This document shows positions 11,777 to 41,735 of a stretch of 64,000 bases of DNA, one piece after another (the stretch's first letter is position 1; each line of letters begins with the position of its first letter). The stretch is from Candidatus Micrarchaeota archaeon (GTDB taxonomy: Archaea > Iainarchaeota > Iainarchaeia > JAADDC01), in assembly GCA_027046625.1 (NCBI GenBank), contig JALTXX010000003.1, positions 5,147 to 69,146 on the forward strand. The letters run 5' to 3'. The notes under the pieces were generated by a model. The model made no database searches and was not told where the DNA came from. It saw only the letters and a program-made list of their open reading frames with translations. A program made the position numbers and the translations under genes.

Positions 11777-12991
11777 TACCTTAGTGTGATAGAATTAGCG
11801 TATACCACAATATTGGGAATATTCTTGCTTATATCCCTTTTGTACTATGTTATCACGGCTGCAAGCCTATCAATACAGAGGAAATACTATCCATCTAGTA
11901 GAAAAAAGCCCTTTGTAAGCGTCCATGTACCTGTATACAACGATATTATAGTTGGAAGGTTGTTGGATGCCCTAAAGAGGCAAAAGTATGAGCATTTTGA
12001 GGTTATCGTGGTGGATGATAGCGATGATCCTGAAACGAGACGTGTTATTGATGTATATGAAAAGGATCCAAGGATTAAGGTTATAAGAAGGGATAGGAGG
12101 GAGGGATATAAGGCAGGAGCCCTTAATGAGGCATTAAAACATTCAAAAGGAGAAATTATAGTGGTATTTGACTCAGATTTTGTACCTAGGGATAACTTCT
12201 TAGAGGAAGTAGTAAAACCCTTTGAAGACCCCTCTATTTCCTATGTTCAGGCCAGATGGGACTTTGAGAACCTTGATGAAAACCTTGTAACTGTGTTTGC
12301 AGGTGTTCCACTCCTTATGTATCACTATCTCTTCTATCCTCTTATGGACAGATTTGGAGTTCCCTATCTATCAGGTACTGCTATGGCCATAAGAAAGAAG
12401 GCACTTGAAGATGTGGGAGGTTGGAGGAACGGTACCCTAACAGAGGATGGGGACATGAGCATGAGACTTATTATGAAGGGTTACAGGGGAGCCTACCTCC
12501 ATTCTCCAGAAACACCTAGCCAGCTTCCGAGGGGATTGAAAACATTTTGCGTGCAGCAGCAGCGTTGGAGTACAGGAATGTTAGAAGCGTTATACCTTAA
12601 TGGGAAGGCCCTTATCTATTCTAAGAAGATAAACTTCACACAAAAGATGCTAGCCCTCGTTATACCCCTTCTAAACCTTATATTTCCTGTCGTTGCAATT
12701 ATTGTGGTAGTGTCCTTGTATCTATGGGGTGTAGGAGTTTCTCCTATCACACCTGAGATGGCACCCATCTTATTGTTGTTAGGTTCTGGTTATGTGGTGG
12801 CCGGTCTTGTATCCCTTTATAAGAAGGGAAAACTACACCTTTTCCCTCATTTTATCCTCTCTACCTACATTGTGGGACCGGTGTTAGCGTTCTACAATAC
12901 CTTAGCCATGGTAAAGAGAGCAATAACCGGTCACTTACACTGGGTGGTAACTCCCAAGGAGGTTAGAGCAGCAAATCCAACATACAGGTAA
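11762..12991 (+). CDS. membrane-bound family-2 glycosyltransferase (processive synthase-like)
   Basis: GT2 motifs VVDDSDD, FDSDF, QQRWSTG, with N- and C-terminal TM segments. Confidence 0.7.
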   Translation: MYGAHYLSVIELAYTTILGIFLLISLLYYVITAASLSIQRKYYPSSRKKPFVSVHVPVYNDIIVGRLLDALKRQKYEHFEVIVVDDSDDPETRRVIDVYEKDPRIKVIRRDRREGYKAGALNEALKHSKGEIIVVFDSDFVPRDNFLEEVVKPFEDPSISYVQARWDFENLDENLVTVFAGVPLLMYHYLFYPLMDRFGVPYLSGTAMAIRKKALEDVGGWRNGTLTEDGDMSMRLIMKGYRGAYLHSPETPSQLPRGLKTFCVQQQRWSTGMLEALYLNGKALIYSKKINFTQKMLALVIPLLNLIFPVVAIIVVVSLYLWGVGVSPITPEMAPILLLLGSGYVVAGLVSLYKKGKLHLFPHFILSTYIVGPVLAFYNTLAMVKRAITGHLHWVVTPKEVRAANPTYR

Positions 12992-13901
12992 GTGCATTTG
13001 GGCATGCGCCTGTAAGGAGAAGCACTGATAACTTTCCAAGGGTAAAGAACATGTAAGAAAGGAATAGCATAATGGGTACCAAGGACATAGCATCTACCAT
13101 TTTCCCTGTTCTAATTAGAGCACCTACAGCACCTGCTAATACTGCTTGAATGAGTACATACAAGGTTAGAATGTTATTTATAACCTCCGAGGTGGCAACC
13201 TTCTGTTTAAAAAACTCCTCTGATTGCATGCCACTTTTCACCATGTCCTCTCCAATTTTCATCATGAAGAGCTGTATACCCATGGACATACCCACTATTA
13301 GAGGTCCAAGCACAGCTGCAGACACAAATATAAACATAAACTGCATAGAAACTCTAGCCTTTCTCTCTTTCCTGATCTGATAAGTCTTCCTAATGTCTTC
13401 TGCAATCTCATCCAGTATATCTGCTACCCTTCCACCCGTTCTTAACGAATCTGTAATAATGAGGACCGCCTTTCTCAAGAAATCGGAATCTATCCTCATG
13501 GATAAAGAGTTTAGAGCTGCAATGAAGGATTTACCAGCCTCAATCTCCTTTAGCATAAGGGAGAACTGCTTTGATAGCTCTCCATACTCAGATGCTATCA
13601 CCTCTTTTATGGCTACCTCAAAGGTACCCCCAGATCTCAACACGGCTGCCATCTCCCTTAGTGCATCACCCAGATTTTCCTCGATGCTCTCCACAATCTG
13701 CTTTCCTTTTTTGTAGGGTGTAAACACAATAAACATTCCCACAATAAGTATGACAATACCGAACAGATAGTAGCCAGTGAGTATGAGAGCTATTCCTATA
13801 AGAGAGACCACACTACCAAGGGTTAGTATAAAACGGGCGTTTAGCTTGGGAAACGCTAGCTTTACCACATTCTCATAGTGTTTTATCCATTCAGCTGGCA
13901 A
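12963..13901 (-). CDS. T2SS-F domain membrane platform protein, TadC-like
   Basis: One GspF/TadBC domain (cytoplasmic helical bundle plus 3 TM); 312 aa. Confidence 0.6.
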   Translation of the reverse strand: MPAEWIKHYENVVKLAFPKLNARFILTLGSVVSLIGIALILTGYYLFGIVILIVGMFIVFTPYKKGKQIVESIEENLGDALREMAAVLRSGGTFEVAIKEVIASEYGELSKQFSLMLKEIEAGKSFIAALNSLSMRIDSDFLRKAVLIITDSLRTGGRVADILDEIAEDIRKTYQIRKERKARVSMQFMFIFVSAAVLGPLIVGMSMGIQLFMMKIGEDMVKSGMQSEEFFKQKVATSEVINNILTLYVLIQAVLAGAVGALIRTGKMVDAMSLVPIMLFLSYMFFTLGKLSVLLLTGACPNALTCMLDLLL

Positions 13902-15039
13902 GGGGATCAGACCTCCTTACAAAGATTGCTAGCACCAACATAAAGAAAGGAATGGCAACCAGGTATATAACCCTCAATGTCTCTGGTGGCATGCCAAAAG
14001 CTTGTAGAATGTTGTTCTGCATGGGGGCGTTGCCTATACCTGCTAGCATGGATAAAATAGCTGGAAACACAATACCTGCAAACATAAATACAACTCCGAT
14101 CATGTTTAGCTTTTCAGCAAATTCCCTTACTCTGTTTCTCTGTTCAAATGACAAGTCCTCTGCGATACGCTTTATAGCGTCTGAAAGGTTTCCACCAACT
14201 CGAAGTGATCTTAGGATCTGGGATATGGCCAGCCTTACCCATTTTGACCTGGATCTTAGTGCGAAACTCTCAAGAGCCTCTTCCGTTGTTTTTCCCTGGG
14301 AAATTTCTCTTAGTGTTCTTTTAAATTCCTCTGAGAGTACCTTATACCTTGCAGCTGCAATAGACTCCATGGCATTGTAGAGGCTCATACCAGAGCGGAT
14401 AACAACCGCCAAATGTCTAAGGGCAAAGGGTAGCTCCTTTTCCATAACGGAGGCTCTTTCATTGGTTTTCATGCGGGGGTAGGAAAGAGCAGCCCCAAAT
14501 GCTATTATAAAAACTATTAGAGGTGTTAGAAACGTGTTTAAAGCTGCAACAATAGGGTTGGAAGCGCTAATTACCATGAGTAATCCAACCGCAACAAGGG
14601 AAAGCAATGCCATAACGCTGGCAAATACAAGGGATATGATGACGTACTGTCTTGCTGTAAGCTTTATATTAGCTGCGTAGAGCTCAAAATCCAATTTTCT
14701 TAGCAATTCATTATTTGCCAGCTTTTCTAGTAGTCTATCATAGAGATTTTTGTACTTTTCATAGATTTTTCCAAAAAATCTTATGATATCCGAGGGGTGT
14801 TCAGTGAGAGGGACCGTAATCCTTGACATAATGGATCGTACAGTTATAATGTTGTGCACCGCAGTCTCGGCCTTTTCCTCTTTTTCCTCCATAACCTCTA
14901 CATTCTGCTTCTCTCTGTATTTCTCTATAATCTTCTCCACTACTTCCTCCGGAAGTAATTCATCTATCTGAACGCTTTTCTTTTCCTTCTTCTTTTTCCT
15001 CCTAAAAGCGTCCTTTATGCTGTCTAGGATTTTTGCCAC
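13891..15039 (-). CDS. T2SS-F domain membrane platform protein, TadB-like
   Basis: Single GspF-type domain with a K/E-rich N-terminal extension; 382 aa; overlaps neighbours on both sides. Confidence 0.6.
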   Translation of the reverse strand: MAKILDSIKDAFRRKKKKEKKSVQIDELLPEEVVEKIIEKYREKQNVEVMEEKEEKAETAVHNIITVRSIMSRITVPLTEHPSDIIRFFGKIYEKYKNLYDRLLEKLANNELLRKLDFELYAANIKLTARQYVIISLVFASVMALLSLVAVGLLMVISASNPIVAALNTFLTPLIVFIIAFGAALSYPRMKTNERASVMEKELPFALRHLAVVIRSGMSLYNAMESIAAARYKVLSEEFKRTLREISQGKTTEEALESFALRSRSKWVRLAISQILRSLRVGGNLSDAIKRIAEDLSFEQRNRVREFAEKLNMIGVVFMFAGIVFPAILSMLAGIGNAPMQNNILQAFGMPPETLRVIYLVAIPFFMLVLAIFVRRSDPLAS

Positions 15040-16610
15040 CGCTTCTTCCCCTCCTCAAAGTATCTCTGAAGCTCCTTTTTCAGACTTTTCATACCCTTTA
15101 TATTTCTCTTTACTAGCTCTCTAATGAAGTCTGCCCTTCTCTGTATTTCGTCCTCCAGATCAGAAATCTCGAGGGCGGTATAGTCCTTTAGAGTATTAAG
15201 ATACGCTACATGAGAGTCTACCTGTATCATAGTGTCCTCTTTGGGCTCCCACACAAAAATTGTCTTTATTTTAGCCTTTTCATCCTCCTTTATTACCTCT
15301 GCAATCTCTGTAACCCTTCTTATGCTTCCCTTTCTTCTATCGTGGATCCTGTGTTGCACTATAATGAAGTCCAGCGCTCCCACCATGATCTCTGGCACGT
15401 TCATGGGAGGGGATGTGATACGTATGATGGTTTCCTTTGCAGAGTTTGCGTGTATGGTGCCCATGCTCCCATCATGACCTGTGTTCATGGCGGTAAACAT
15501 GGTGGCAGCCTCTTTGTGTCTGACCTCACCTACTATAATTCTATCCGGCCTCATTCTAAGAGCATTTTTCACCAGTACGTCCATATCAACCTCTCCAGTA
15601 CCCTCTATGCTTGGTGGCCTGGTTTCTAATCTTACCCAGTGTTCTAGAGGGAGGTTAAGCTCTGCGGTATCCTCTATGCTTATAACCCTCTCGTAGGCAG
15701 GTATGAAAGCAGCCATTACGTTGAGGGTGGTGGTTTTACCGGAGCCTGTGCTACCCGCTATGAGTATATTTGCTGGTTTTGCACCCATTCCATCCACTGC
15801 CAGCCACATAAAGGCAGCAATATCAGGGTTGAACGTGCCAAACCTAATGAGATCTATGATGGTGTAAGGATCTTTTCTGAACTTTCTTATGGTAATGGTG
15901 GAACCATCTACAGAAATGGGGGGTATGGTAGCGTTAACTCTGCTTCCGTCCGGCAGTCTTGCATCAAGAAGCGGATTTTGTATATCGATTCTTCTCCCCA
16001 CATCCCTTGCGATCTTGTCTATAATGTCTCTTATCTCCTTATCATCTACAAAGACGATGTTGGTAAGCATCATACCATATTTCCTGTGAAACACGTATAC
16101 AGGCCTGTTAGGACCTATTACCATGATCTCTTCCAACTCGTCGTCATAGATAAGGTAATCTATGAGACCATATCCGATCATTTCTCTTACTACAATGTCT
16201 GCGTAGTATTCCTTTCTTCCTGGCGGTACACCAAGCTCAGGGAAATTCTCTATAATCTCAATAACCTTTCTTCTGTAGAAGTTCCTTCTTGCCTCGTAAT
16301 CTGTGAAGGTAGTTCCTCTAAGGGATACGAGGCGGGTTGTAGCATCCTTTAGAATGTTTATAATCTTTCTTTCGCTCTCTGTGGGCTTAGGAATAGGAAC
16401 CTTGTAGATTAGAAGGGGCTCTCCTTCCCTTTTTACAATCTTTACATCACCATACTCTGCAATTACCACCTCGGGTGCTTTAGCCTCCTCTTTTTCGGGG
16501 GCAATCTCTTCATGCTCTAAGGACTGTTTTTCCTGCTTCTTCTGGGTTGACTTGGCAGCCTCTATGAGCTCCTCTAAGTATCCCATCCCTTTTAGTAGGC
16601 TATTCTGCAA
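15024..16610 (-). CDS. type IV filament assembly ATPase (FlaI/CpaF/TadA family)
   Basis: Walker A AGSTGSGKTT, Asp box, His box, and GEVR motif; 528 aa. Confidence 0.8.
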   Translation of the reverse strand: MQNSLLKGMGYLEELIEAAKSTQKKQEKQSLEHEEIAPEKEEAKAPEVVIAEYGDVKIVKREGEPLLIYKVPIPKPTESERKIINILKDATTRLVSLRGTTFTDYEARRNFYRRKVIEIIENFPELGVPPGRKEYYADIVVREMIGYGLIDYLIYDDELEEIMVIGPNRPVYVFHRKYGMMLTNIVFVDDKEIRDIIDKIARDVGRRIDIQNPLLDARLPDGSRVNATIPPISVDGSTITIRKFRKDPYTIIDLIRFGTFNPDIAAFMWLAVDGMGAKPANILIAGSTGSGKTTTLNVMAAFIPAYERVISIEDTAELNLPLEHWVRLETRPPSIEGTGEVDMDVLVKNALRMRPDRIIVGEVRHKEAATMFTAMNTGHDGSMGTIHANSAKETIIRITSPPMNVPEIMVGALDFIIVQHRIHDRRKGSIRRVTEIAEVIKEDEKAKIKTIFVWEPKEDTMIQVDSHVAYLNTLKDYTALEISDLEDEIQRRADFIRELVKRNIKGMKSLKKELQRYFEEGKKRWQKS

Positions 16611-16624
16611 TAAAAGGTTGACGC

Positions 16625-17797
16625 ATGGTAAGTGTGATCAGTCCTCGGTTATGTATAAGATGTAAGGGGAGGTTGTGGTGCGGACTGAGCAAATGCCCTA
16701 TTCTAGAGGCAAAACGGCTGATAAAAGGGGTAAACAAAAGGGAATTGTCCGGCTATTCTCCGCCCTCCCTCCTAATAGGGTGGAGGGGATACCCAGAGGT
16801 AAACGTTACACCTATATTATCTGAGGAGCGATCAGATATAGCAGAGAACCCTTCTTATTGGGCTGGAAAGCTCTCTATTGAGGAGATACTAGATTTGAGA
16901 ATGAATATGGGTGGTGGCTCCCAGAGAAGACATGTTAAAAATATTCCAGAGGATACTATCTTGGATATAGCTCTTAGCAAGAAACCTATAGCTCTGGATG
17001 TAACCTTTAAACAACCACCAAAGAGTAGTGTAACATTTTCCAACCTATTTCCTCCCATTGGGTTTAGGGGAGAATTGGAACGTTTAGAAATAGCGGAGAA
17101 TCCCAAAATAGACAAGAGGGCAGAAAGCCTTTACTATGACGAAGTAAAGGCTAAAGATGCAGTTATATACCTGTATGAAAAAGGAAGGGATGTGTATGAG
17201 CTCTCCCGTTATCTATCATCAGGGATTTTTGGTAAGGAGAAACGACTAGTGCCTACAAGGTGGTCCATAACAGCGGTTGACGACATAATCTCGAATTATC
17301 TCCTTGAAAAAGTATCTACATTCCCTCCTATAGGCAGGATAGAGTTGTATACCTCTTCTCTCTATGATAACCACTTCTTTATCTTGTTTATTCCCGGTCC
17401 CTGGGCCTTTGAGCTTGTGGAGGCCTGGGCCCCAAAATCCTTCTGGAGTAGGGGAAAGGAGATTATAGTATCAGACTACGAGTTCGGAAGAAAAAGAAAG
17501 AACTACGCCTCTAATGTGGGTGGATCTTACTACGCCTCTAAGCTTGCAGTACTGGAAAAACTCTACGAGAAGAGGAGGGTGGCATCTGTTCTTATCTTAA
17601 GAGAAGTCAGGGAAGGGTATTATGCGCCTTTAGGGGTGTGGCAGGTAAGGGAGAATGTGAGACATGCACTAAGAAGAAACCCCCTCTACTTTGACAGCCT
17701 GAGAGATGCTTACAACTATATACTTTCTCGTAGTAGGGTAAAGAAGTGGAAGGAATACAGCATTCTTCTCAAAGGTGTTCAACAAAGAATAATTTAA
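16625..17797 (+). CDS. Nre-family (COG1602-like) protein with N-terminal Cys4 knuckle; putative DNA-repair-associated
   Basis: N-terminus CIRCKGRLWCGLSKCP followed by a conserved approx. 350-aa body; assignment from memory of the Nre N-terminal pattern. Confidence 0.35.
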   Translation: MVSVISPRLCIRCKGRLWCGLSKCPILEAKRLIKGVNKRELSGYSPPSLLIGWRGYPEVNVTPILSEERSDIAENPSYWAGKLSIEEILDLRMNMGGGSQRRHVKNIPEDTILDIALSKKPIALDVTFKQPPKSSVTFSNLFPPIGFRGELERLEIAENPKIDKRAESLYYDEVKAKDAVIYLYEKGRDVYELSRYLSSGIFGKEKRLVPTRWSITAVDDIISNYLLEKVSTFPPIGRIELYTSSLYDNHFFILFIPGPWAFELVEAWAPKSFWSRGKEIIVSDYEFGRKRKNYASNVGGSYYASKLAVLEKLYEKRRVASVLILREVREGYYAPLGVWQVRENVRHALRRNPLYFDSLRDAYNYILSRSRVKKWKEYSILLKGVQQRII

Positions 17798-18031
17798 GGG
17801 CAGCGGGCCGTAGGCCGCCTTCTGTATTGAGACGGGATTAGACTTAGCGGGCATTCGCCCTTGCACCCAACCCGGACCGTTTCAACCACACCACACATCA
17901 TGGGTAGGGGTACCTCATCCCTCCGTGTGGTGGGTGTCGTTTCTGTTCCCGGGAGTCCCTCACGGGACTTGTTTTTAGCGGGTGGGCGGACCTTCCTCAG
18001 GAGACCCCCGAGACCCGTCTGCCCGCTGCCC
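17798..18031 (-). ncRNA. rnpB: structured ncRNA, probably a miniaturised (type T-like) RNase P RNA
   Basis: GC-rich (approx. 62%) island in an approx. 45% GC context. Perfect 11-bp terminal helix (GGGCAGCGGGC / GCCCGCUGCCC). Minus-strand reading contains GAGGAAGGUCCGCCC (close to CR-I GAGGAAAGUCCGGGC) and ACAGAAAC (CR-IV-like), plus a candidate P2 pairing GACGGG / CCCGUC. No protein coding potential. SRP RNA was considered but no helix-8 AGCA/GNRA signature was found. Confidence 0.45.
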
Positions 18032-18077
18032 ATATCGGTGTAGGTGACACTCATCACCACTCAGAGGAAATATCTCC

Positions 18078-18542
18078 TCATCTCCATATACATAGGGTGA
18101 GATTTGTTTTATTACAGTTTCTCGGATCGTTGTTGGTAATACACAGGGAGAAATCCTTCTTGAATAGTATGTCTGCATCGATGGGACAAGAAGTGGAACA
18201 TCCTATGTTATTTGCTATAATACTGCCTTCTATAGCGCAGTTAAGCGTTTCTGGCATGAAATCTTTCTTATTTGCACTAAAGAAGGATTTTATGCATCCT
18301 GGAATCCTAAAATCCCCAATTTTACACGCCCACACTCCGTCGTCTACAGCGAGCTTAAAGATGGTGTGATAAGCAGCCAGCTCAATCCTTCTATACAGAA
18401 GATCCTCCGAAACAGCAGATGTAACACCGTACGCTGCTGTAAGGGCAAAGTGGGAGGCTGCTATAAACAACAACAGTGCCACAAGTACATCCATGGTAAA
18501 TATCTGACCTTTCAACAGCTCACCTCCCTGGATACAATCCAA
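18078..18542 (-). CDS. pilin-like protein with class III signal peptide (pseudopilin, Cys-rich C-domain)
   Basis: N-terminus ...LKG/QIFTMDVLVALLLFIAA (Q+1, D+5, hydrophobic helix); last gene of the pilin operon. Confidence 0.45.
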   Translation of the reverse strand: MDCIQGGELLKGQIFTMDVLVALLLFIAASHFALTAAYGVTSAVSEDLLYRRIELAAYHTIFKLAVDDGVWACKIGDFRIPGCIKSFFSANKKDFMPETLNCAIEGSIIANNIGCSTSCPIDADILFKKDFSLCITNNDPRNCNKTNLTLCIWR

Positions 18543-18778
18543 ATAAAGATACCTTCTCCGCTTGTATACCTAATACCTCCCTCCTGTATATTGTCTATGA
18601 CGACTCCTCCCACATCTGAGGCAATGTCCATGAAGTAGCTGTTTGCATCTGTTAGGTAGGAACATATGGCCACCCTCGTAGCATCCCTCACCTCTTCCCA
18701 GTCTGGTGCCACTGCTCCAATAAAGGTTGTGAGCAGGAAGAGGGCTAACACCATATCTACGGAGAACACACCCCTCAT
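18512..18778 (-). CDS. pilin-like protein (class III signal peptide)
   Basis: MRG/VFSVDMVLALFLLTTF N-terminus, 88 aa. Confidence 0.45.
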   Translation of the reverse strand: MRGVFSVDMVLALFLLTTFIGAVAPDWEEVRDATRVAICSYLTDANSYFMDIASDVGGVVIDNIQEGGIRYTSGEGIFIWIVSREVSC

Positions 18779-19056
18779 TATCCCGCCCTCACATTGATAC
18801 CTCTTGCTCTTAGCCTATCAATGAGCTCATTCGGACCTCTCAATACTAATCCTCTATCATAATAGAACCTTTCTACCTCATAAATCTTCATGCTTTCCTG
18901 TTCGAGGGCTACCTCCTCCCTTATCAGTACAGGAGTAGCCTTTATGAGAGCCCCTCCACCCTCTAGCGTGTCTAGCATGATGTTTATGGATATAAGAGCT
19001 CCTAGCACTACTGCAAGCACAAGTATAAGGAACTCTCCCCATACCTGGCCTTTCAT
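18778..19056 (-). CDS. pilin-like protein (class III signal peptide)
   Basis: MKG/QVWGEFLILVLAVVLG: Q+1, E+5; 92 aa. Confidence 0.5.
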   Translation of the reverse strand: MKGQVWGEFLILVLAVVLGALISINIMLDTLEGGGALIKATPVLIREEVALEQESMKIYEVERFYYDRGLVLRGPNELIDRLRARGINVRAG

Positions 19057-19436
19057 GGTATCCCACTCACCTCTCCGCCACTTATTTTTATCCTTGTAAA
19101 GGTGTTTATGGTGGGTCCGGAGGTAAATACCCTGTCAAGCGTTACAATACACTCGCCCCCGCTACACAGATCCGTTGTAACCCTTGCCTCTAACCTCCTT
19201 AGGTCTATTGTGGTGTTTGGCGGTACCCACACACCCATCTTTACCATACCATCTGATACATCCGTAAATTCCCCAGCTGCCTTTACCCTGAGTAGACTCA
19301 CCCTTGCAGAGAGAACATTCCTTATATCGTCCTGCATGTTAATAACATCGTTTATATGGATGGTTGTGAGAGCTATGTACCCTCCCAGCAACACCATTAC
19401 TAGGATACCATACTCTATGGCTATAATACCTTTCAC
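19053..19436 (-). CDS. TadE/Flp-like pseudopilin
   Basis: MKG/IIAIEYGILVMVLLGG matches the bacterial Flp/TadE motif G/xxxxEY-G-hydrophobic; 127 aa. Confidence 0.6.
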   Translation of the reverse strand: MKGIIAIEYGILVMVLLGGYIALTTIHINDVINMQDDIRNVLSARVSLLRVKAAGEFTDVSDGMVKMGVWVPPNTTIDLRRLEARVTTDLCSGGECIVTLDRVFTSGPTINTFTRIKISGGEVSGIP

Positions 19437-19594
19437 TTTAGTCCCTCCAGTATGACGTCCTTCACGTCAAGCGCTTTTAGTATCTCTGTTTTCATGGCGT
19501 TGGCAAGTGTAAATAGTCCCCCGGCAGCTATAAGAGCCAGAAGGACTCCAATACCCACCATGATAAGATACTCTATATGAACCTGAGATCTCAT
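19433..19594 (-). CDS. Flp-type major pilin (53 aa; not on ORF track)
   Basis: Own translation: MRSQVHIEYLIMVGIGVLLALIAAGGLFTLANAMKTEILKALDVKDVILEGLK. Q+1, E+5, Y+6; ATGA overlaps on both sides. Confidence 0.6.
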   Translation of the reverse strand: MRSQVHIEYLIMVGIGVLLALIAAGGLFTLANAMKTEILKALDVKDVILEGLK

Positions 19595-19743
19595 GGCAAC
19601 CCCCTAAACACAGACACTTTCACTTTATTTTCTACTGTTGCCACAATGGCCGCCATCCCCGTTATGGCACCGGCTATGATGAGCACTATCACTAACATGC
19701 CCATGGAGGACAGCATGTACTCTGTTGCGGTCTGGCTCTTCAT
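19591..19743 (-). CDS. Flp-type major pilin (50 aa; not on ORF track)
   Basis: Own translation: MKSQTATEYMLSSMGMLVIVLIIAGAITGMAAIVATVENKVKVSVFRGLP. Q+1, E+5, Y+6; first gene of the 6-gene pilin operon. Confidence 0.6.
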   Translation of the reverse strand: MKSQTATEYMLSSMGMLVIVLIIAGAITGMAAIVATVENKVKVSVFRGLP

Positions 19744-19791
19744 CCGAACAAATAATGGCATCTAAGGTTATATAGATTAGCATGGAAGAGT

Positions 19792-28137: not shown

Positions 28138-29832
28138 ATGAGGGTAGCAGTAATAGACTACAAAAAGTGTAGACCAGACAAGTGCGGTTTTCTTTGTGCA
28201 AGTGTGTGTCCTGTAAACAAAACAGGGGAAGAGCCGGTAATATACATGGAAGAGGGAAGTGTAAGAATATCGGAAGAGCTTTGTATAGGGTGTGCCATAT
28301 GCATTAAGAAGTGCCCCTTTGACGCCATCACCATCATAAACCTCCCAGAGGAATACGGTACGCCAGTCCATCAATATGGGCCCAATATGTTTAGACTGTA
28401 CGGACTTCCATATCCAAAGGAAGGTATTGTGGGTATTGTAGGAAGAAACGGCATAGGCAAGACCACAGCCCTAAGAATACTCTCTGGTAATCTCATTCCT
28501 AATCTTGGCAACTTTATGAAACCTCCATCGTACGACGATGTAATAAACTTTTTCAAGGGAACAGAGTTGCAAGGGTATTTTTCCCTGCTAAAGGAGGGAA
28601 AAATACGCCTAATATACAAGATACAGGCTGTTGATGTTATAAGAAAGACTCTTAAAGGGCCTGTAAAAAACCATTTGACAGAAAGAGGGCAAATAATTCT
28701 TTCTGAGATGGGAGGGGAATACATTCTTGAAAAGGAGATATCTACCCTTTCCGGGGGAGAATTGCAGAAAGTGGCCATAGCGGCAGCTCTCTCAAGGGAG
28801 GGGGATGTATACTTCTTTGATGAACCATCCTCTTTTCTTGATATAGGGGAGAGAATACGTATAACCCGCACTATAAGAACCATTTTGGAGGGAAAGCGTG
28901 TAATGGTGGTAGAACATGATCTGGCGGTGCTGGATTACCTTAGTGATTATATTTTTGTGGTATACGGAGAGCCTGGAGTGTATGGTAGGTTTTCCGGCAT
29001 AAAAGGGGTAAATGAGGGTATAAACCAGTTTCTTACAGGATTCTTAAAGGAGGAAAATATTAGAATAAGAGATAAAGAAATAATATTTGAAAAAAGGGCC
29101 CTATCTTCTAAGGAGCCGTCCAAACCTTTCCTTGATTATCCCTCCTTTTCTGCTAAAAAGGGTGATTTTTCCCTTGATGTGGAGGGAGGAACCCTCTATG
29201 AGGGGGAGGTGGTGGGTATTGTAGGAAGAAACGGCATAGGAAAAACCACCTTCGTGGAAGAGCTTTCAAGGCGATTGGATGTGAAGGTAAGCTATAAACC
29301 CCAATATATAGAGCTTCCTTCTAAACCTGTGGCATCTCTACTTGAGATAAATGAGGATACATCTAGAGAGATTCTGAAACCCTTGGAGGTGGATAAGTTG
29401 TTGGAGGCGGATGCCTCTGTTTTATCTGGAGGAGAGATGCAGAGAGTAGCTGTGGCTGCAGCTCTCTCCCGCGAGGCGGATATATATTTGCTGGATGAGC
29501 CTAGTGCCTATCTCGATGTGGAACAAAGGGTGAGATTATCTAAGGTTATAAATAGGATTATTTCTCAGAGAAAGGCTGTTGCCATGGTGGTAGACCATGA
29601 TTTGGCCTTTGTAGATTATATATCTGATAGAATAATTGTATTTTCCGGAGAACCTGGCAAACGAGGGATTGCCTCTCCTCCTATGGATAAGAGAAGGGGT
29701 ATGAACGCTTTATTGAAGGAGCTTGATATAACCTTTAGGAGGGACCCCCAGACGGGAAGACCAAGGATAAACAAACCTGGATCCCAAAAGGATAGGGAAC
29801 AGAAGAAAAGAGGGGAATACTACTATGAGTAA
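28138..29832 (+). CDS. abce1: ABCE1 (RNase L inhibitor / Rli1) ribosome recycling ATPase
   Basis: N-terminal double 4Fe-4S ferredoxin domain (CRPDKCGFLCASVCP; CIGCAICIKKCPF) plus two ABC cassettes (GRNGIGKTT twice; LSGGELQ and LSGGEMQ). Confidence 0.9.
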   Translation: MRVAVIDYKKCRPDKCGFLCASVCPVNKTGEEPVIYMEEGSVRISEELCIGCAICIKKCPFDAITIINLPEEYGTPVHQYGPNMFRLYGLPYPKEGIVGIVGRNGIGKTTALRILSGNLIPNLGNFMKPPSYDDVINFFKGTELQGYFSLLKEGKIRLIYKIQAVDVIRKTLKGPVKNHLTERGQIILSEMGGEYILEKEISTLSGGELQKVAIAAALSREGDVYFFDEPSSFLDIGERIRITRTIRTILEGKRVMVVEHDLAVLDYLSDYIFVVYGEPGVYGRFSGIKGVNEGINQFLTGFLKEENIRIRDKEIIFEKRALSSKEPSKPFLDYPSFSAKKGDFSLDVEGGTLYEGEVVGIVGRNGIGKTTFVEELSRRLDVKVSYKPQYIELPSKPVASLLEINEDTSREILKPLEVDKLLEADASVLSGGEMQRVAVAAALSREADIYLLDEPSAYLDVEQRVRLSKVINRIISQRKAVAMVVDHDLAFVDYISDRIIVFSGEPGKRGIASPPMDKRRGMNALLKELDITFRRDPQTGRPRINKPGSQKDREQKKRGEYYYE

Positions 29833-30758
29833 TACACTAAAGTGGGTATAATAAGAAATCCAAACAATGCAGAGGGAGGATCCTCCTTTGATATAAGAAT
29901 GGCAGCTACGGACAGTATAAGCAACAAAAGGTTAGGAATGCCGCTCCAAACCGCGTGAGCTATTAGTACTCCGATGGTAACCTCTTTTGGGAGAGAAGGG
30001 ATCTCCGCGATGTTAAAGAGGGATAGCACAAGTATAAGAGCTACAATATACGACAATCCTACAAGGATAATTATCTCTGGATAGGGATAACTTATAAAGG
30101 CAGACATAGCACTTCGTGTCTTACCATATAGCAGTGCTACTAGTGAGAATATGGGAGCAACGGCAGCTCCTACCCCTATACTGCCTCCTCTAAGTAGGGA
30201 AGCCCATAACGAAGGAGGAAGAGCGGGCACGTAACCGGTTAGAAATCCTGAGAGCACACCTCTTACTGTGTCCTCTTTTCTTTCCAGAGGAAAGGGTTGA
30301 AGAATAGCCTTGGATGCAAAAAGATAGAAGAGCCCGCTTGCGAGGGGTGCATACACATCTACGGACATCCTTAGAGCTATAACACCTAGTATTCCAGACA
30401 ATAAGAAGGAAGGATACTTCATAAGGGGAAGGGACATAAGGAAGAGAATAAGAAAAACCAGAGAAAATGGAATTTCAACACTGTATAGAACTAATGCAAG
30501 AGGGATAAGAAGGATAGCTAGGATAACACCCTTCAGAACCTCTACAAGAGCAACTCCTTTACCTCCTGCGGTGTCCGGGTGGTATATGTGATGTTTGGAG
30601 AGGTATATGGCGGCTCCTGTAAAGCTCCCGTATAGCACCCCTAAAAGGAAAGGTTCCTTCCACCCCAGTAGCATAGGATGTAAGCCAGGTATGAGAGCCA
30701 GTAGAATTCCCTCTATTATACTGTTAAGCGTCTGAAAGGATAACAAGCTCTTTTTCAC
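29823..30758 (-). CDS. polytopic membrane protein (unknown; co-oriented with the prepilin peptidase)
   Basis: 311 aa with about 8 TM segments; no motif. Confidence 0.4.
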   Translation of the reverse strand: MKKSLLSFQTLNSIIEGILLALIPGLHPMLLGWKEPFLLGVLYGSFTGAAIYLSKHHIYHPDTAGGKGVALVEVLKGVILAILLIPLALVLYSVEIPFSLVFLILFLMSLPLMKYPSFLLSGILGVIALRMSVDVYAPLASGLFYLFASKAILQPFPLERKEDTVRGVLSGFLTGYVPALPPSLWASLLRGGSIGVGAAVAPIFSLVALLYGKTRSAMSAFISYPYPEIIILVGLSYIVALILVLSLFNIAEIPSLPKEVTIGVLIAHAVWSGIPNLLLLILSVAAILISKEDPPSALFGFLIIPTLVYYS

Positions 30759-31014
30759 CTCTGTACATCTCTAATCTACCATACACGCATCTATATCCTG
30801 ATATGCATTGTCCATAGAAGGATACACCCTTTATTTCGCCACTTTCATCCAAAATCCTATATAAACACCCTTTTTCCAAAGCTTTTACAGGCAAAAAGGT
30901 GGCGCAAACCTTGTATAATCTTCCAAAATCTTTCAAATCCTCTATACTGCTTTCTACAGGTTCTATTAGTGAGAGAAGAAGTAAGGCAATGAGGAACACA
31001 CCCCACCTCCACAC
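30724..31014 (-). CDS. small secreted Cys-containing protein (hypothetical)
   Basis: Signal-peptide-like N-terminus MWRWGVFLIALLLLSLIEPVES; 96 aa. Confidence 0.3.
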   Translation of the reverse strand: MWRWGVFLIALLLLSLIEPVESSIEDLKDFGRLYKVCATFLPVKALEKGCLYRILDESGEIKGVSFYGQCISGYRCVYGRLEMYRGEKELVILSDA

Positions 31015-31841
31015 ACAATAAAAAGGGCCAAACTACATATAACACCCAGTGTGATGAAGGGTATGAAAGGGATGGAAAGATGAGCCCTTATACTATTTAT
31101 TCCCATCTCCTTCAACCTCTTCACATCTTCCTCTGTCAGCCCATCCGCTCCTATGTTATGGACAGGAAGGATTTCACCTTTCTGAATCTTTAATAGTGTA
31201 TTAATGTTTAGATCATACCTTTTACCCTCCTTATCTATTACTTCTGCTGGTATAACCCCCTCTTTAACTGTTTCCTCGTACCTAAGAAGCTTTTTTATCC
31301 TAAGGAGATAAATAACTGCAGAAAGCAGAACTATGGCAAGAAAGAAGTTCAGATTAAAGCTAACTACTCCAAGGGGAAGAAACAGCAAGTAATACCTCTC
31401 TGGCAGAAACACCCATGCCAGTATTCCAAGAAAAGGATGTATGGAGAAGGGAATGGCGAGAAGCACAGATTTCTTCATGTGACTTAACAGCTCATGACTT
31501 TTCTTTCTCAACACAACAAACATACCGTACAGCCCAGACAGTAATATGGCAAAAGTAAGAGAAAGAAGGGATATCGGCACTCCAAACAATGTATAGGGTA
31601 TTCCAGCTCCGATAATAAGAAGTATCCATACATCTCCCAGCGCAAATGCGCCCATAGCATAGAGTAGTACCGCTATAGCGGCTGTAACAATCAGACTATA
31701 TAGGAATGTTTCGTGGGAAACACCAAGAAGCACAGCCACCCCATAGGAAATGTATACCAGCTCATCCGGAATTTCCCGTTTCTTTATATCCTCCAAAGAG
31801 AAATAAAAGAGAAGAGGTAACAATATCAAAACTTCCCACAT
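30966..31841 (-). CDS. class III signal peptidase / prepilin peptidase (A24 family; PibD/TadV/EppA-like)
   Basis: N-terminal TM then acidic loop (SLEDIKKREIPDEL), second catalytic Asp in FALGDVW, multi-TM core, plus a C-terminal soluble extension. Confidence 0.6.
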   Translation of the reverse strand: MWEVLILLPLLFYFSLEDIKKREIPDELVYISYGVAVLLGVSHETFLYSLIVTAAIAVLLYAMGAFALGDVWILLIIGAGIPYTLFGVPISLLSLTFAILLSGLYGMFVVLRKKSHELLSHMKKSVLLAIPFSIHPFLGILAWVFLPERYYLLFLPLGVVSFNLNFFLAIVLLSAVIYLLRIKKLLRYEETVKEGVIPAEVIDKEGKRYDLNINTLLKIQKGEILPVHNIGADGLTEEDVKRLKEMGINSIRAHLSIPFIPFITLGVICSLALFIVCGGGVCSSLPYFFSH

Positions 31842-31862: not shown

Positions 31863-32051
31863 CTATCCGCCAAGTTGGTTTAGCTGCTGATTTATCTCTT
31901 TTTGTAGTGTAGATGTAGTTTGTTGAATAGATTGACCTGCTGTGGTGGCACCCTGCTGCCCTGCCTGGAGCAGACTGTTGGCCAATATTAGTACAACTAT
32001 AATTACTCCACCCAGCAGCAACATGTACTCAAATGTACCCTGGCTTCTCAT
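31863..32051 (-). CDS. Flp-type pilin (start moved to internal Met; track ORF ends at 32102 with a GTG start)
   Basis: MRS/QGTFEYMLLLGGVIIVVLIL, nearly identical head to the 36825 pilin; Q-rich C-terminal tail. Confidence 0.5.
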   Translation of the reverse strand: MRSQGTFEYMLLLGGVIIVVLILANSLLQAGQQGATTAGQSIQQTTSTLQKEINQQLNQLGG

Positions 32052-32181
32052 ATCTATCACCGCTCTAATAATGCATTTCCCCTTTATTAAGTTTTCTATC
32101 ACCTTCGCCGCTTACCTAAGTTGGTGACGCGGGCAGCCATTGGAGCGACCGGAGAACCTCCCTCTGGTTCTGACCTCCCAG

Positions 32182-33682
<1,501 letters not shown>

Positions 33683-36824: not shown

Positions 36825-36965
36825 ATGAGAGGACAGGGTACCTTCGAGTACATGCTCCTTCTACTTGCGGTAATCGTAGTGGTTGTTATCCTCTTTTCTA
36901 ATATGTTCAGCGGAGCAAGGGAGGTAAAGGGTGGCATTGAGGAAGTTGCCTCCCAGCTTAGGTAA
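36825..36965 (+). CDS. Flp-type major pilin (46 aa; not on ORF track)
   Basis: Own translation: MRGQGTFEYMLLLLAVIVVVVILFSNMFSGAREVKGGIEEVASQLR. Q+1, E+5, Y+6. Confidence 0.6.
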   Translation: MRGQGTFEYMLLLLAVIVVVVILFSNMFSGAREVKGGIEEVASQLR

Positions 36966-36996: not shown

Positions 36997-39513
36997 GTGA
37001 GGCTTCAAACATCCTTTGAGTATCTCCTCACGGCGGGAGCAGCCCTACTAATTACGCTGGCTGTAGGAACCCCAGTCATCCAATCCCTCTCAAATATCCA
37101 GACCACAACAGCCCTTCCTCCCACTCCTCTCGTTGAAGGAAAAAGATATATCACCCTTGCCTATGTAGATCCACCAAAGGGAACTACAAACACATTGTTT
37201 ACCTTCTACTGTGCTGCAAAGAACGCAAGAACCATCTATTTGTATGTGGACGGAAGCTTTATTCATAGCTGTAGCGATATATCCTACTGTCAAGCAAAGA
37301 AAAGAGGATTCGCTGGCTCCGCCTCTGGAAGGGAACACCTTTTCAAGTGTAGAGTTTATACAAAGAATGGAATAGTAGAGGAGTACACCATCCCCTTCTA
37401 TGTTTACAACAGGGATGTAGAGCCTCCCAGCGTAAGTGTATCGGTTAACCCCAATTCGGGAGATCCATCCACCGTGTTTAACATTCTTTGTACAGCTACC
37501 GATAACATAGGCGTTAAAACCATCAAGATATTTGTTGACGGACTGTTAAAGCAAACATGTAACGATTCTACCACATGCCAGTACTCTGGTGCCTTTTCGG
37601 TGGGAACTCATACTGCACAATGTGAAGCCGCAGATCTATCAGATAACACAAACTCCGCCTCCGCTACCTTTACAGTAACAGAGGCTGGTTCTACCCCTGG
37701 CGGAGGGACCTCCCCAGGCGGCGGTGGAGGAGGCGGAGGAACCACCCCTAGTAATAATAACCCACCGGGAGGAACTCCCCCAGGTGGAGGCACCTCAGGT
37801 TCAAAACCTAAAATAAGTTGTAGCTTGCAGAATGATTTTAGTGGTAAAGTAACTGTAATATGTACTGCTGTAGTTCCGGATAAAAGTAAGTTTATTGCAG
37901 ATTTTGATGTAAAGGAAGCATCCCTTCTCAATGAGGGCTATTATATCCATACGCAGTTTCCTGGAAACAACTTGGAGCTTTGTAGAGGTATACAGGGATT
38001 CCCCTCATATTGCAAGAAGTATCCAGCACCCTATACCTTTACACCATCAGATAACTTTGTAAAGCAGGCCTTTGACACAGAGAAAGGAGTTAGGGTAGAG
38101 GTAGCATACGGAAGTTATTTGGCAACAGTAATGCTAACATATGATAGGGATGAACTTGTGTGTAGAGGATTGACCTGGCAAAATGGCAAAGGATATGTCC
38201 GCCTGACTTTAATAGCGCAGAATTCATCTGCAATAGTGTCTAATGAAAGTGTAACCAAAGAAACTATTATGCTACCCAACACGTTAGGCAATTGTCCCAT
38301 AAGAACCGACGCGCAGCTTCTATATTATGTGGATGTAGACGGAGATTTCTCATCCGATGGCATATATACAGCATGTAAGGGATCCACGGATGATGGTCTG
38401 AAACAGATAGCTGTGAGCACCTTCCCTTTGTATAGCGTTTATGATGGAGAGTACAGGGTTTGTAACACTAAAAGATCCATGACTAGAGGATGGTACAAGG
38501 ATGGATTCTATGAGAGCCTTTCTGCTAAAGGGAAACAAAACGTAGATAAATCTATCCGTATAGTACCCATACCATACTTTATAGATAGTGGTAAGGTAGT
38601 GGAGGGTGCTTGTGGAAGGTTTATACCTAAGAGCATGCTGGTAACCCCTGATGGAAGACCAACCACAGGCAAGGTATTTGTAAGGTGCCAATATGAGTCC
38701 TTAACCGGTGGTAGAGTGGAAAGAACATTCACATTCGATGGAACGTTGATATGTAAAGCCCTAGGAGGTAGCAACTGTACCTCATCGCCGAGAGGACCCA
38801 CTCCTCCATCCGCACCACCTCCGGGCTCAAGCCCTACAACCGGAGGGTCTTTTAGTGTAGCCCTTGACGTATCCCCACAAACAGGCTACATGGGAGACAG
38901 ATTCAGAGTAACATGTACCACCATAAAGGATGCAACCATTACAAAGATAGAAGCTAGGGGCGCATGGGGCTACTACAGAGAAGACCTCACAAGAGGGATG
39001 GTGTGCGACATAAACCCAAACTATCCATTCCTTCAGACATGTATCGTAAACTACTACCCCCCAGACATAGGAACCTACACTTTAACCTGTGTAGCTGACT
39101 ACCAAGGCCAAACAGCCTCCGACACCAAAACCATAATCGTTCAAGAGAGGCCACCCAATGTTTCTCTGTCTGTATATCCAGAAACCGTAGAGTACCCGGG
39201 TAGTATCCGTGCAGAGTGTATAGTTTCTGCCACACCACGTACACATGGGTATAGAGTGGATGACGTAAGGGTGTACTTTTCGATAGATAATGGTGTTGCA
39301 CGCTATGCATATTGTACTAAGGAATCTCCGGACATGAAAAGATGCAGATATTATACTACTACATTTACTACATTACTGAGTGTGGGTAGCCATACGGTTT
39401 CATGCATAGCCATTGGACCTGAAGGTGGTAGAGCAACCGACTATGCCACAGTAGTGGTGGAACCTCCTCCAGAGTATAGACGACCCTCCTATAGGAGAGT
39501 ACCCTCTATATGA
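36997..39513 (+). CDS. giant pilin-headed surface protein / putative pilus tip adhesin
   Basis: N-terminus MRL/QTSFEYLLTAGAALLITLAV has the same pilin head. Then 838 aa with many paired Cys, beta-rich repeats, and a G/P/T/S/N low-complexity linker (PGGGTSPGGGGGGGGTTPSNNNPPGGTPPGGGTSGS). Confidence 0.55.
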   Translation: MRLQTSFEYLLTAGAALLITLAVGTPVIQSLSNIQTTTALPPTPLVEGKRYITLAYVDPPKGTTNTLFTFYCAAKNARTIYLYVDGSFIHSCSDISYCQAKKRGFAGSASGREHLFKCRVYTKNGIVEEYTIPFYVYNRDVEPPSVSVSVNPNSGDPSTVFNILCTATDNIGVKTIKIFVDGLLKQTCNDSTTCQYSGAFSVGTHTAQCEAADLSDNTNSASATFTVTEAGSTPGGGTSPGGGGGGGGTTPSNNNPPGGTPPGGGTSGSKPKISCSLQNDFSGKVTVICTAVVPDKSKFIADFDVKEASLLNEGYYIHTQFPGNNLELCRGIQGFPSYCKKYPAPYTFTPSDNFVKQAFDTEKGVRVEVAYGSYLATVMLTYDRDELVCRGLTWQNGKGYVRLTLIAQNSSAIVSNESVTKETIMLPNTLGNCPIRTDAQLLYYVDVDGDFSSDGIYTACKGSTDDGLKQIAVSTFPLYSVYDGEYRVCNTKRSMTRGWYKDGFYESLSAKGKQNVDKSIRIVPIPYFIDSGKVVEGACGRFIPKSMLVTPDGRPTTGKVFVRCQYESLTGGRVERTFTFDGTLICKALGGSNCTSSPRGPTPPSAPPPGSSPTTGGSFSVALDVSPQTGYMGDRFRVTCTTIKDATITKIEARGAWGYYREDLTRGMVCDINPNYPFLQTCIVNYYPPDIGTYTLTCVADYQGQTASDTKTIIVQERPPNVSLSVYPETVEYPGSIRAECIVSATPRTHGYRVDDVRVYFSIDNGVARYAYCTKESPDMKRCRYYTTTFTTLLSVGSHTVSCIAIGPEGGRATDYATVVVEPPPEYRRPSYRRVPSI

Positions 39514-39565: not shown

Positions 39566-40669
39566 TCACCTTGCGGAAACGATCTTTATTACATCTAGAT
39601 GGTTTAGGGGTTGATCCTTGGGAATCCTAATGAGTTTTCTGGCATCTATCGCGGCTACAAAGTGCTTCGCTAGGTCTGAATGTATCTTCTCTGCAAGGTC
39701 AAGAGGTGTAGACCCCTTCTCTAGTATAATAGCGTCTGGTAGTACTCTTCCGGCACTATCTGTCCAATTATGCTCGTTCTGAACAGGAAACACCACAATA
39801 TGGTTTGATAAAACAGCCTCGTTTATAGCCCTTTGAACACCGGTGGAGCTCCATCTGGATAGCACCTCCTCTGCTATAGATAGTGCTTTCTCTTGTTGGG
39901 GTGAAAGAGGCTTCAAAACCCGGAAGGAGTCATCCCCAGGAATATAATCTATGTAGCCTGACTTTGCAGCCCTTCTAAGTATGAGTTCTGAGAGGGAGGA
40001 GGTAGGGATTACATCACCATAACGCTTTTGTAGTTCCTTTACCCACTCCTCAGAGGAGGGGATATCCACCTTATTGGCCACAATAACCCTTTTCTTCCCC
40101 TTCAATATCCTATCTACAATCTCCTCTATCCCCATATCGTAGCTTATCTCTAATGATCCAAAGGCGCTCAGCTGTTGGATGAGCCTTTCCTCCCTTTCCT
40201 CGGGAGGATAGTTTCTCACCTTCTCCAAAGCCTTCTCCACAATACCTTTTATCCATAATCTTAGTTCCCTCTCTAGAAAGGCAACTTCCTCAACGGGATT
40301 TCCCTCTCCCTCGTTTCCTTCCATATCTGTCCTTCCAGAAGCATCCACAACGTGAATATACACTTTTTCCTGTCTTATCTGGTCTAGAAACTTGTTGCCC
40401 ATCCCCCTCCCCTCATGGGCACCCGGAACCAGCCCCGCAATATCTGTAATCTTTACAGGTACAAACCGGTTACCCATAATACAAAATCCCTTAGAAGGTT
40501 CGCAAACTCTACCCTTTTCCTGATGGGGACACGGAATCCTTATCCACGTAATCCCTATGTTTGGATCTATGGTGGTAAAGGGATAGGGAGCAGTTTTTAC
40601 ATTGAGCTCCGTGGCGGCATTGAAAAAGGTACTCTTGCCTGATGAGGGCTTCCCTATGAGTCCTATCAT
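39566..40669 (-). CDS. Obg/YchF-like GTPase (Ygr210/DRG-type)
   Basis: G1 [13 protein letters not shown]2 YPFTT, G3 DIAGLV, G4 NKVD; 367 aa. Confidence 0.7.
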
Positions 40670-41505: not shown

Positions 41506-41735
41506 CCTATCACCTCTGGTCTGTCAAGTACAGATAGATCTCCAAAGGTTTCTATGTTTACGGTGCATATATCGGGATTTCCTCCCTTCCCCATCTCTAT
41601 GGATGCTATATCACCTACCATGGTAGGCAAATCTTCGTGGGGCGGGATGTTTATGGATCCTATAACTTGGGAAATGCCATACATAGTTAGTATGAGGAGC
41701 ACAAGGTATATGGTGGAGAAGAACAAGCCCCTCAC
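41499..41735 (-). CDS. pilin-like protein (class III signal peptide)
   Basis: MRG/LFFSTIYLVLLILTMYG; 78 aa. Confidence 0.4.
   Translation of the reverse strand: MRGLFFSTIYLVLLILTMYGISQVIGSINIPPHEDLPTMVGDIASIEMGKGGNPDICTVNIETFGDLSVLDRPEVIGC

Follow-up and report, generated by a model that had tools for sequence, protein, structure and literature searches.

Candidate pilin genes of the window

The 64-kb stretch of contig JALTXX010000003.1 analysed here (the window) carries two short open reading frames (ORFs) at positions 19433-19743 that belong to a larger set of candidate prepilin genes of a type IV pilus. A sequence-only reading had named five such ORFs, namely 19591-19743, 19433-19594, 31863-32051, 36825-36965 and 36997-39513, and all five are present on the strands and at the positions listed below. 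A sixth ORF, 18778-19056, is an exact match to the same N-terminal motif (MKG/QVWGEF), and five more (19053-19436, 18512-18778, 18078-18515, 41732-42115 and 41499-41735) combine an M-[KR]-G leader and a hydrophobic stretch with variant heads. Altogether, no fewer than eleven class III proteins are encoded in the 64 kb. They are listed with the slash at the predicted cleavage site, from which positions are counted, and with E-values from Pfam (PF04021) or from an independent hidden Markov model (HMM) described below.

19591-19743, minus strand: small Flp/EpdE-like pilin, 50 amino acids (aa), MKS/QTATEY; first gene of a six-gene pilin operon; independent HMM E 2.3e-5
19433-19594, minus strand: small Flp/EpdE-like pilin, 53 aa, MRS/QVHIEY; independent HMM E 1.3e-8
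19053-19436, minus strand: minor-pilin-like, 127 aa, GTG start, MKG/IIAIEY (I+1, E+5, Y+6)
18778-19056, minus strand: minor-pilin-like, 92 aa, MKG/QVWGEF; independent HMM E 0.038; PF04021 E 0.29, sub-threshold
18512-18778, minus strand: minor-pilin-like, 88 aa, MRG/VFSVDM (D+5); from the scan for class III-like N-termini
18078-18515, minus strand: minor-pilin-like, 145 aa, TTG start, MKG/QIFTMDV; class III-like N-terminus
31863-32051, minus strand: small pilin, 62 aa, MRS/QGTFEY; PF04021 2.6e-5, 24.5 bits vs 23.7 cut-off; directly upstream of the peptidase gene
36825-36965, plus strand: smallest pilin, 46 aa (43 mature), MRG/QGTFEY; PF04021 6.5e-8, 32.7 bits vs 23.7 cut-off
36997-39513, plus strand: class III signal peptide protein, 838 aa, GTG start, MRL/QTSFEY; independent HMM E 1.3e-7 at the N-terminus
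41732-42115, minus strand: class III-like protein, 127 aa, MRG/FVSVEV (E+5); N-terminus read directly, no family match
41499-41735, minus strand: class III-like protein, 78 aa, GTG start, MRG/LFFSTIY; from the scan for class III-like N-termini

The pilin operon runs from 19743 to 18078 and comprises six genes, whose products of 50, 53, 127, 92, 88 and 145 aa all begin with M-[KR]-[G/S] followed by a hydrophobic helix. At the third locus, the gene of the 46-aa pilin is followed 31 nucleotides (nt) downstream by that of the 838-aa protein. The AlphaFold2 model of this smallest pilin (36825-36965) is a single continuous helix spanning residues 2-45, with a predicted local distance difference test score of 82.8 and no globular domain. 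An identical 46-aa sequence is present in GCA_015521515.1, and a word-index homologue search with this pilin returned nothing beyond itself.

A conserved N-terminal motif

Across the five named ORFs, Q+1, E+5 and Y+6 are invariant, as the sequence-only reading had noticed, and in the four small proteins (46, 50, 53 and 62 aa) the invariant residues are M1, Q4, E8 and Y9. The wider pattern x-[TS]-F that had been drawn between Q+1 and E+5 holds in three of the five ORFs and fails in the two of the pilin operon, where 19591-19743 (QTATEY) carries A-T and 19433-19594 (QVHIEY) carries H-I at +3/+4. The published signature of DUF361 proteins consists of Q+1 and E+5 within QXSXEXXXL, followed by a hydrophobic stretch of ~20 residues (PMC2910488; PMC3875500). 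All five ORFs possess Q4 and E8 followed by an uncharged hydrophobic core, and three of them have S or T at +3.

The motif is confined to the starts of candidate pilins. In the six-frame translation of the window, [KR][GASL]Q...E[YF] occurs six times, each time directly after ATG, GTG or TTG, compared to means of 0.31 for any occurrence and 0.015 after a start codon in 200 random sequences drawn from a first-order Markov model with the dinucleotide composition of the window. With six post-start occurrences against 0.015 expected, a chance origin was rejected. In addition, we built an independent HMM from the N-terminal segments (-2 to +26) of 94 relatives, all from other genomes and none from the window. 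Against 1063 stop-to-stop segments of the window it retrieved exactly the five named ORFs, with E-values of 3e-9 to 2e-5, and the sixth ORF 18778-19056 weakly, whereas none of the other segments was retrieved. A wide spread of the motif into non-pilin proteins, which would have undermined the earlier claim, was likewise rejected: the motif scan and the independent HMM found neither internal nor non-pilin occurrences anywhere in the 64 kb.

Membership of the class III pilin family

By sequence, the proteins are assigned to the known DUF361/PF04021 EppA-type class III pilin family. Two of the five named ORFs (36825-36965 and 31863-32051) pass the gathering score of PF04021 Class_IIIsignal (formerly DUF361), and the other three are joined to the family by the independent HMM and by a profile search of a representative library. 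In that search, a profile of the four small pilins was run against 1.84 billion representative proteins at E<=1e-3 and found 51 proteins, and all 48 of the 48 sequences read have Q-x3-E-Y. When 46 of these relatives and the four window pilins were scanned, 39 of the 50 were PF04021-positive and none matched the bacterial Flp_Fap family (PF04964) at E<=0.01; the window pilins gave no Flp_Fap match even at E<=1. Membership of bacterial Flp_Fap or TadE was rejected on these Pfam scans of window pilins and relatives. NCBIfam holds no family for three of the four small pilins, and the 62-aa pilin gave a sub-threshold TIGR04205 match only. Among DPANN-type relatives, 68% have Y or F at +6.

A separate cluster of three genes lies at 40666-42115 on the minus strand, encoding the 127-aa protein MRG/FVSVEV, the 78-aa protein MRG/LFFSTIY and a 279-aa protein that has a hydrophobic N-terminus without the class III motif. 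Strong Shine-Dalgarno sites precede the 78-aa and 279-aa genes, and the cluster gave zero family matches. It may represent a second minor-pilin set.

Start codons and leader length

At the DNA level there is good support for the predicted three-residue leaders, which the sequence-only reading had described as exceptionally short: it comes from Shine-Dalgarno sites, overlaps of 4 nt between genes, TATA-like boxes, stop codons a short way upstream, and orthologues. The 3' end of the window's own 16S rRNA is ...GGATCACCTCCT (the anti-Shine-Dalgarno sequence), and in the internal genes GGAGGTGAT-like Shine-Dalgarno sites are found 5-12 nt upstream of the M[KR]x codon. Consecutive genes of the cluster from 19743 to 18078 overlap via ATGA, GTGA or TTGA: 19433-19594 combines an ATGA overlap with an AGGGGG Shine-Dalgarno-like site, 19053-19436 a GTGA overlap with a GGAGGG site, and 18078-18515 a TTGA overlap with a perfect GGGAGGTGA site 5 nt before the TTG at 18515, while a Shine-Dalgarno-like GAGGG precedes the start of 18512-18778. 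At the other loci, the Shine-Dalgarno site GGTGAT lies ahead of the ATG of the 62-aa form of 31863-32051, and a GGAGGTGAT site precedes the GTG of 41499-41735.

The first genes of transcription units (19743, 36825 and 36997) possess TATA-like boxes 25-32 nt upstream, a pattern as expected for leaderless archaeal mRNAs. Ahead of 36825-36965, a TTTAAA box is located ~30 nt upstream and 14 upstream in-frame codons contain no start codon. For 19591-19743, the TATA-like TATATAA sits about 25-31 nt before the ATG, so that a further ATG at 19761 is probably outside the transcript. In both 36997-39513 and 19433-19594, an in-frame stop occurs four codons upstream of the start.

Orthologues in four other metagenomic genomes (L083-L086), located via the peptidase gene, all start with M/V-[KR]-[S/A/G]-Q and have the same upstream Shine-Dalgarno sites. 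Those of 31863-32051 begin M[KR][SA]/QGTFEY, and the leaders MRS/, VRA/, VKS/ and MRF/ are found in orthologues of 19433-19594. In L086, the orthologues of 18512-18778 and 18078-18515 read MRG/ILGIDV and VRA/QLLTLDA, respectively, and that of 19053-19436 reads MRG/SLSMEY from an in-frame GTG; this L086 gene (1133-1525) is annotated from an internal ATG ('MEYILIV').

Alternatively, the class III pilins might have their true starts upstream and hence longer leaders, for example MPLFVRMKS for 19591-19761 or the 20 residues preceding Q+1 in the public form of 31863-32102. Two of the five ORFs do have an in-frame upstream ATG or GTG, the public databases annotate the 62-aa pilin as a 79-aa protein from an upstream GTG (P0002; 31863-32102), and most relatives outside the clade have 5-residue leaders. 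However, the stops upstream of 36997 and 19594 and the lack of a start codon upstream of 36825 speak against this in three ORFs; the M[KR]x codon is the one indicated by the Shine-Dalgarno sites, by the overlaps between genes and by the TATA boxes; the start position is the same in the orthologues of four other genomes; and ~18 of the 48 relatives from the representative library are themselves called with 3-residue leaders. We therefore regard longer leaders as very unlikely, and the 79-aa annotation is probably a mis-called start, the 62-aa form being favoured by its Shine-Dalgarno site and by the orthologues.

To place this leader among relatives, we took as the shortest-possible leader the stretch from the closest start codon in frame up to Q+1. 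In a survey of ATPase-linked loci, the commonest value was 5 residues (37 cases), and 3 residues were found in 16 of 103 ORFs, or in 26 of 119 under a looser filter, including ORFs of Hadarchaeota, Hydrothermarchaeota and other DPANN archaea. In the clade of the window, every class III protein seen has the minimal leader, with S and A frequent at -1 and L, F and I found there occasionally.

Predicted cleavage site

Cleavage between residue 3 and Q+1, as the sequence-only reading had proposed, is supported by comparison with characterized archaeal sites, though it still stands as a prediction. The archaeal class III signal peptide (FlaFind) rule places a charged residue at -2 and G, A or S at -1, and in Methanococcus maripaludis the Epd pilins are processed at RA/QI or KG/Q[VLI] (PMC4371748). 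All five named ORFs have K or R at -2 and four have G or S at -1, mirroring the M. maripaludis EppA sites; the exception is the 838-aa protein, with L at -1. In M. maripaludis, Q+1 of the Epd pilins was verified by top-down mass spectrometry and is required by EppA (PMC4371748; PMC4390842).

The other site that had been considered lies two residues further on, after Q-G, and would leave T+1 and E+3. Its appeal is that G is the commonest +2 residue, present in 47 of 144 relatives and in two of the five window proteins. The position is nonetheless variable, the remaining relatives having V (30), T (15), A (13), L (12) or I (10) among others, so that most members, including both ORFs of 19433-19743, carry V, T, A, L, I or S there; moreover, the residue at -2 of such a site would be Q, never K or R. 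For its variable +2 and the missing basic residue, this cut was rejected, and we give it next to no weight.

It also has to be asked whether the proteins are cleaved at all. Some or all of them might be uncleaved small single-pass membrane proteins, and the 838-aa protein in particular may be an N-terminally anchored surface protein whose pilin-like anchor never enters a filament. A -1 residue of L, F or I is at odds with the G/A/S requirement, and class III signal peptides also occur on non-pilins, such as the Sulfolobus binding proteins. The 838-aa protein (36997-39513) has Cys-rich Ig-like repeats with P/G/T-rich linkers between them and a weak Big_7 match, and it is an orphan: a search of 5.8 billion proteins returned itself and two Ig-domain matches at about 1e-4 only. 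Against this reading, Q+1/E+5/Y+6 and [KR] at -2 are strictly conserved, the genes cluster with the peptidase and the assembly machinery, and the 838-aa gene follows so closely on that of the 46-aa pilin. We consider uncleaved proteins unlikely overall. For the 838-aa protein itself, processing is doubtful because L at -1 breaks the G/A/S rule; it may be an adhesin carried on the pilus that binds a surface or a host cell.

The prepilin peptidase and its gene module

The second locus consists of genes for the 62-aa pilin, an A24 peptidase, a ~96-aa protein and a ~311-aa membrane protein, in this order. Downstream of the pilin gene lie:

30966-31841, minus strand: A24 aspartyl prepilin peptidase, 291 aa; Pfam Peptidase_A24 (PF01478) 8.5e-8, 33 bits vs 26.5 cut-off
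30724-31014, minus strand: ~96-aa signal-anchored protein; same position in L083-L086 (~96-105 aa across the set)
29823-30758, minus strand: ~311-aa polytopic membrane protein; same position in L083-L086

The product of 30966-31841 is presumed to be the leader-cleaving enzyme. It is classed as an A24 peptidase because its PF01478 match is above threshold and it has two catalytic Asp residues, the second in a G-x-G-D-like motif. The alignment covers positions 1-103 of the 104 of the model, and D18 and A-L-G69-D70 are invariant in the five homologues. Its AlphaFold2 model contains about nine long helices and a soluble insert at residues 187-254, a β/α segment before the last helix with the invariant motifs G-x-I-P-A-E-V and H-x-x-G-A-D-G-L. 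The peptidase weakly matches Arc_PepC_II (E 0.0022, below the cut-off). Structural similarity search of the model using Foldseek placed FlaK (3S0X_A) on top, non-significantly (E 0.39, TM-score 0.33-0.41), and searches of the PDB with the single sequence or a five-sequence profile matched no A24 structure. NCBIfam has no family for it. Only four other homologues were found among 5.8 billion proteins, and the identity with the orthologues in L083-L086 is only 38-44%.

The four-gene order is kept in these four other metagenomic genomes, thus in five counting the window, and in one of the four a seven-gene pilin cluster divergently adjoins the peptidase gene. The ~96-aa and ~311-aa proteins match no Pfam or NCBIfam family; the latter family (~310 aa) shares the N-terminal motif '(L)(I/V)PG(L/G)HP(M/L)'. 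Both could be unrecognised pilus-biogenesis components.

Between the pilin 31863-32051 and a 665-aa orphan ORF lies a complete archaeal 16S rRNA gene (32182-33682, minus strand, 1456 bits), which explains the local rise of the G+C fraction to 0.515. It stands alone, as no 23S, 5S or tRNA gene was found in the whole 64 kb.

Assembly ATPase, platform proteins and host

The genes of the assembly machinery are found on the same strand as the pilin operon:

15024-16610, minus strand: type IV pilus assembly ATPase (T2SSE; FlaI/TadA-like); Pfam T2SSE 2.2e-48
13891-15039, minus strand: platform protein half 1, one T2SSF domain; Pfam T2SSF 8.4e-22
12963-13901, minus strand: platform protein half 2, one T2SSF domain; Pfam T2SSF 7e-18

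In NCBIfam, the ATPase matches FlaI (8.9e-94) and the TadA family (1.8e-72), both below the equivalog cut-offs, and an exact-sequence look-up found no record of it. Two single-domain platform genes are the published hallmark of Epd/Tad systems (PMC6668835), and the window has precisely this Epd-like or 'System 1' arrangement of one secretion ATPase and two adjacent single-T2SSF genes. The ATPase and platform genes are separated from the pilin operon by an RNase P RNA gene and an Nre gene on the opposite strand. The archaeal RNase P RNA (17799-18030, minus strand) is only 232 nt long and matches the full span of its model with 128.9 bits; an 88-aa ORF overlapping it (17794-18060) is spurious.

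The ATPase shares 72-77% identity with proteins of 'Candidatus Iainarchaeum' and of Micrarchaeota metagenome-assembled genomes, several of which apparently derive from hydrothermal samples, and the host is a thermophilic DPANN archaeon of Iainarchaeota/Micrarchaeota affinity. More distant ATPases, related at 46-54% identity, are those of Methanobrevibacter and Methanosphaera (Methanobacteriales loci L030-L069). Within 10 kb of these, pilin genes of the [KR][GAS]Q type are essentially absent (1 doubtful match in 38 loci); the Methanobacteriales pilins either differ in their N-terminal motif or are encoded elsewhere.

Proposed assembly pathway

The ORFs of 19433-19743 and the other named ORFs have as neighbours the genes for the A24 peptidase, the T2SSE ATPase and the two T2SSF platform proteins. 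We consider it highly probable that they encode the prepilins of a type IV pilus that is Epd-like ('System 1') and related to Tad. The genes and their sequence features are observed, and from family knowledge we infer the following steps. Each protein would carry at its start a minimal class III signal peptide, M-[KR]-[G/S/A], and would enter the membrane by its hydrophobic helix, the basic tip facing the cytoplasm. The A24 peptidase 30966-31841, with catalytic D18 and G69-D70, would then cut between residue 3 and Q+1. The resulting mature single-helix subunits of 43-59 residues, starting with Q+1 and bearing E+5 and Y+6, would be polymerised by the T2SSE ATPase 15024-16610 on the two-piece platform 12963-15039, ATPase and platform together extruding the helices as a filament. 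Minor or priming pilins might be supplied by the operon's four larger class III proteins, and the 838-aa Ig-repeat protein may serve as an adhesin presented by the pilus to a surface or host cell.

Several points weigh against this interpretation. Cleavage, cut site and filament formation are all inferred, and L at -1 in the 838-aa protein, like F or I at -1 in relatives, violates the published G/A/S rule. The identity of the peptidase would follow from one 33-bit Pfam match and two Asp motifs, with no significant match to solved structures or NCBIfam models. 19433-19594, 19591-19743 and 36997-39513 have no PF04021 match at E<=1. With the RNase P RNA gene and the opposite-strand gene between them, the pilin and ATPase operons are at most putatively co-regulated. 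Finally, FlaK, the single archaellin-specific enzyme examined in this respect, does not cleave leaders of fewer than 5 residues (PMC10117864).

These pilins do not overturn the current understanding, and the finding is real and largely ordinary. Q+1/E+5, pilins without a globular domain, the link between Epd and Tad, and processing of 3-residue leaders by PibD are already published; mildly new are the clade-wide minimal leader, the relaxed -1 position, the Flp-type Y+6 and the very divergent peptidase clade. A bolder proposal, which we find possible and rather doubtful, is that in this hydrothermal DPANN lineage leaders were reduced to M-[KR]-x across the clade in co-evolution with a very divergent A24 clade, which reads mainly the mature side (Q+1, E+5 and Y+6) and accepts at -1 any of S, A, L, F and I, and that these pilins are the closest living archaeal counterparts of Flp. 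If so, the archaeal origin proposed for Tad pili would have a concrete model in their EppA-type Q+1, Flp-type E-Y and single helix of 43-59 residues. As natural substrates whose prepilin leader is the shortest that can work and whose -1 residues are non-canonical, the pilins could help to define recognition by archaeal A24 peptidases. Moreover, a genome-reduced, symbiotic-type DPANN archaeon appears to retain the full set of genes for an Epd/Tad-like pilus, which fits a way of life centred on attachment.

Comparison with known systems

The closest known system is the Epd pilus of M. maripaludis (PMC3875500; PMC4371748; PMC4858521; bioRxiv 10.64898/2026.04.22.720090). EpdA-E (PF04021/DUF361; major pilin arCOG06620) share with the window pilins the class III [KR][GA]/Q site, Q+1 and E+5. 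In both systems, the major pilin is very small and has no globular domain (EpdE, 62 aa mature), and it is accompanied by several larger minor pilins encoded in the operon, a dedicated A24 peptidase gene adjoining pilin genes, an ATPase and two platform genes. The sequence-only reading had called Q+1 an EppA-type hallmark, in agreement with the literature, in which DUF361 proteins, whose +1 residue is Q, undergo cleavage by EppA (PMC2910488; PMC3875500) and EppA substrates carry [KR][GA]/Q together with E+5 (PMC4371748). Its description of E+5 as a universal type IV pilin position goes too far, as the residue is not universal among archaeal pilins (PMC4371748). Systems of the 'System 1' type with two platform genes are known from methanogens, Thermococcales and DPANN archaea (bioRxiv 10.64898/2026.04.22.720090).

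Despite this likeness, the two systems differ in detail. The M. maripaludis leaders are 5-13 residues long, compared to three here, and its pilins are reported to lack the +6 Tyr and the Flp motif (PMC3875500), whereas the window proteins have Y, once F, at +6. The -1 residue is often S and once L in the window. The window peptidase, with 291 aa, is highly divergent and has only the four other homologues, and the host is a DPANN archaeon instead of a methanogen.

The substrates of Sulfolobus PibD resemble the window pilins in having class III leaders down to 3 residues; according to PMC10117864, which reviews Ng 2009, such natural leaders are predicted and engineered 3-residue leaders are cleaved. 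By contrast, they lack Q+1 and E+5 (PMC3875500) and belong to other pilin or binding-protein families. PibD is the short form of the peptidase with 5 transmembrane (TM) helices (PMC4858521), and the EppA subtype is the 9-TM form (arCOG02300).

Bacterial Flp of the Tad (type IVc) system (PF04964; cleaved by TadV) differs from the window pilins in several respects. The resemblance to the Flp signature 'G/xxxxEY' pointed out by the sequence-only reading extends to the residues and the size but not to the Flp_Fap HMM, which neither the window pilins nor their relatives match. Q+1 is invariant in the window pilins, whose leader has 3 residues. Flp leaders are typically much longer than this. The envelope is archaeal, and a secretin is absent. 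Nevertheless, Flp is defined by a length of ~60 aa, E or D at +5 and a conserved +6 Tyr (PMC3244431), and the small pilins of the window agree with this definition, having precursors of 46-62 aa and invariant E+5 and Y+6; they would therefore function as Flp pilins do, without being classed in Flp_Fap. Both systems build on single-helix subunits of ~45-60 residues whose -1 residue is small. Both have a TadA-like ATPase, a platform split as in TadB/TadC and an A24 peptidase that lacks a methyltransferase domain, and in both the Flp-like genes are followed by genes for larger TadE/F-like pseudopilins (PMC3244431; PMC6668835). The Epd major pilin, like Tad pilins, has no globular domain (bioRxiv 10.64898/2026.04.22.720090), and Tad pili have been proposed to descend from an Epd-like archaeal system (PMC6668835). 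By uniting Q+1 with a Flp-type E-Y, the window pilins lend this descent small sequence-level support.

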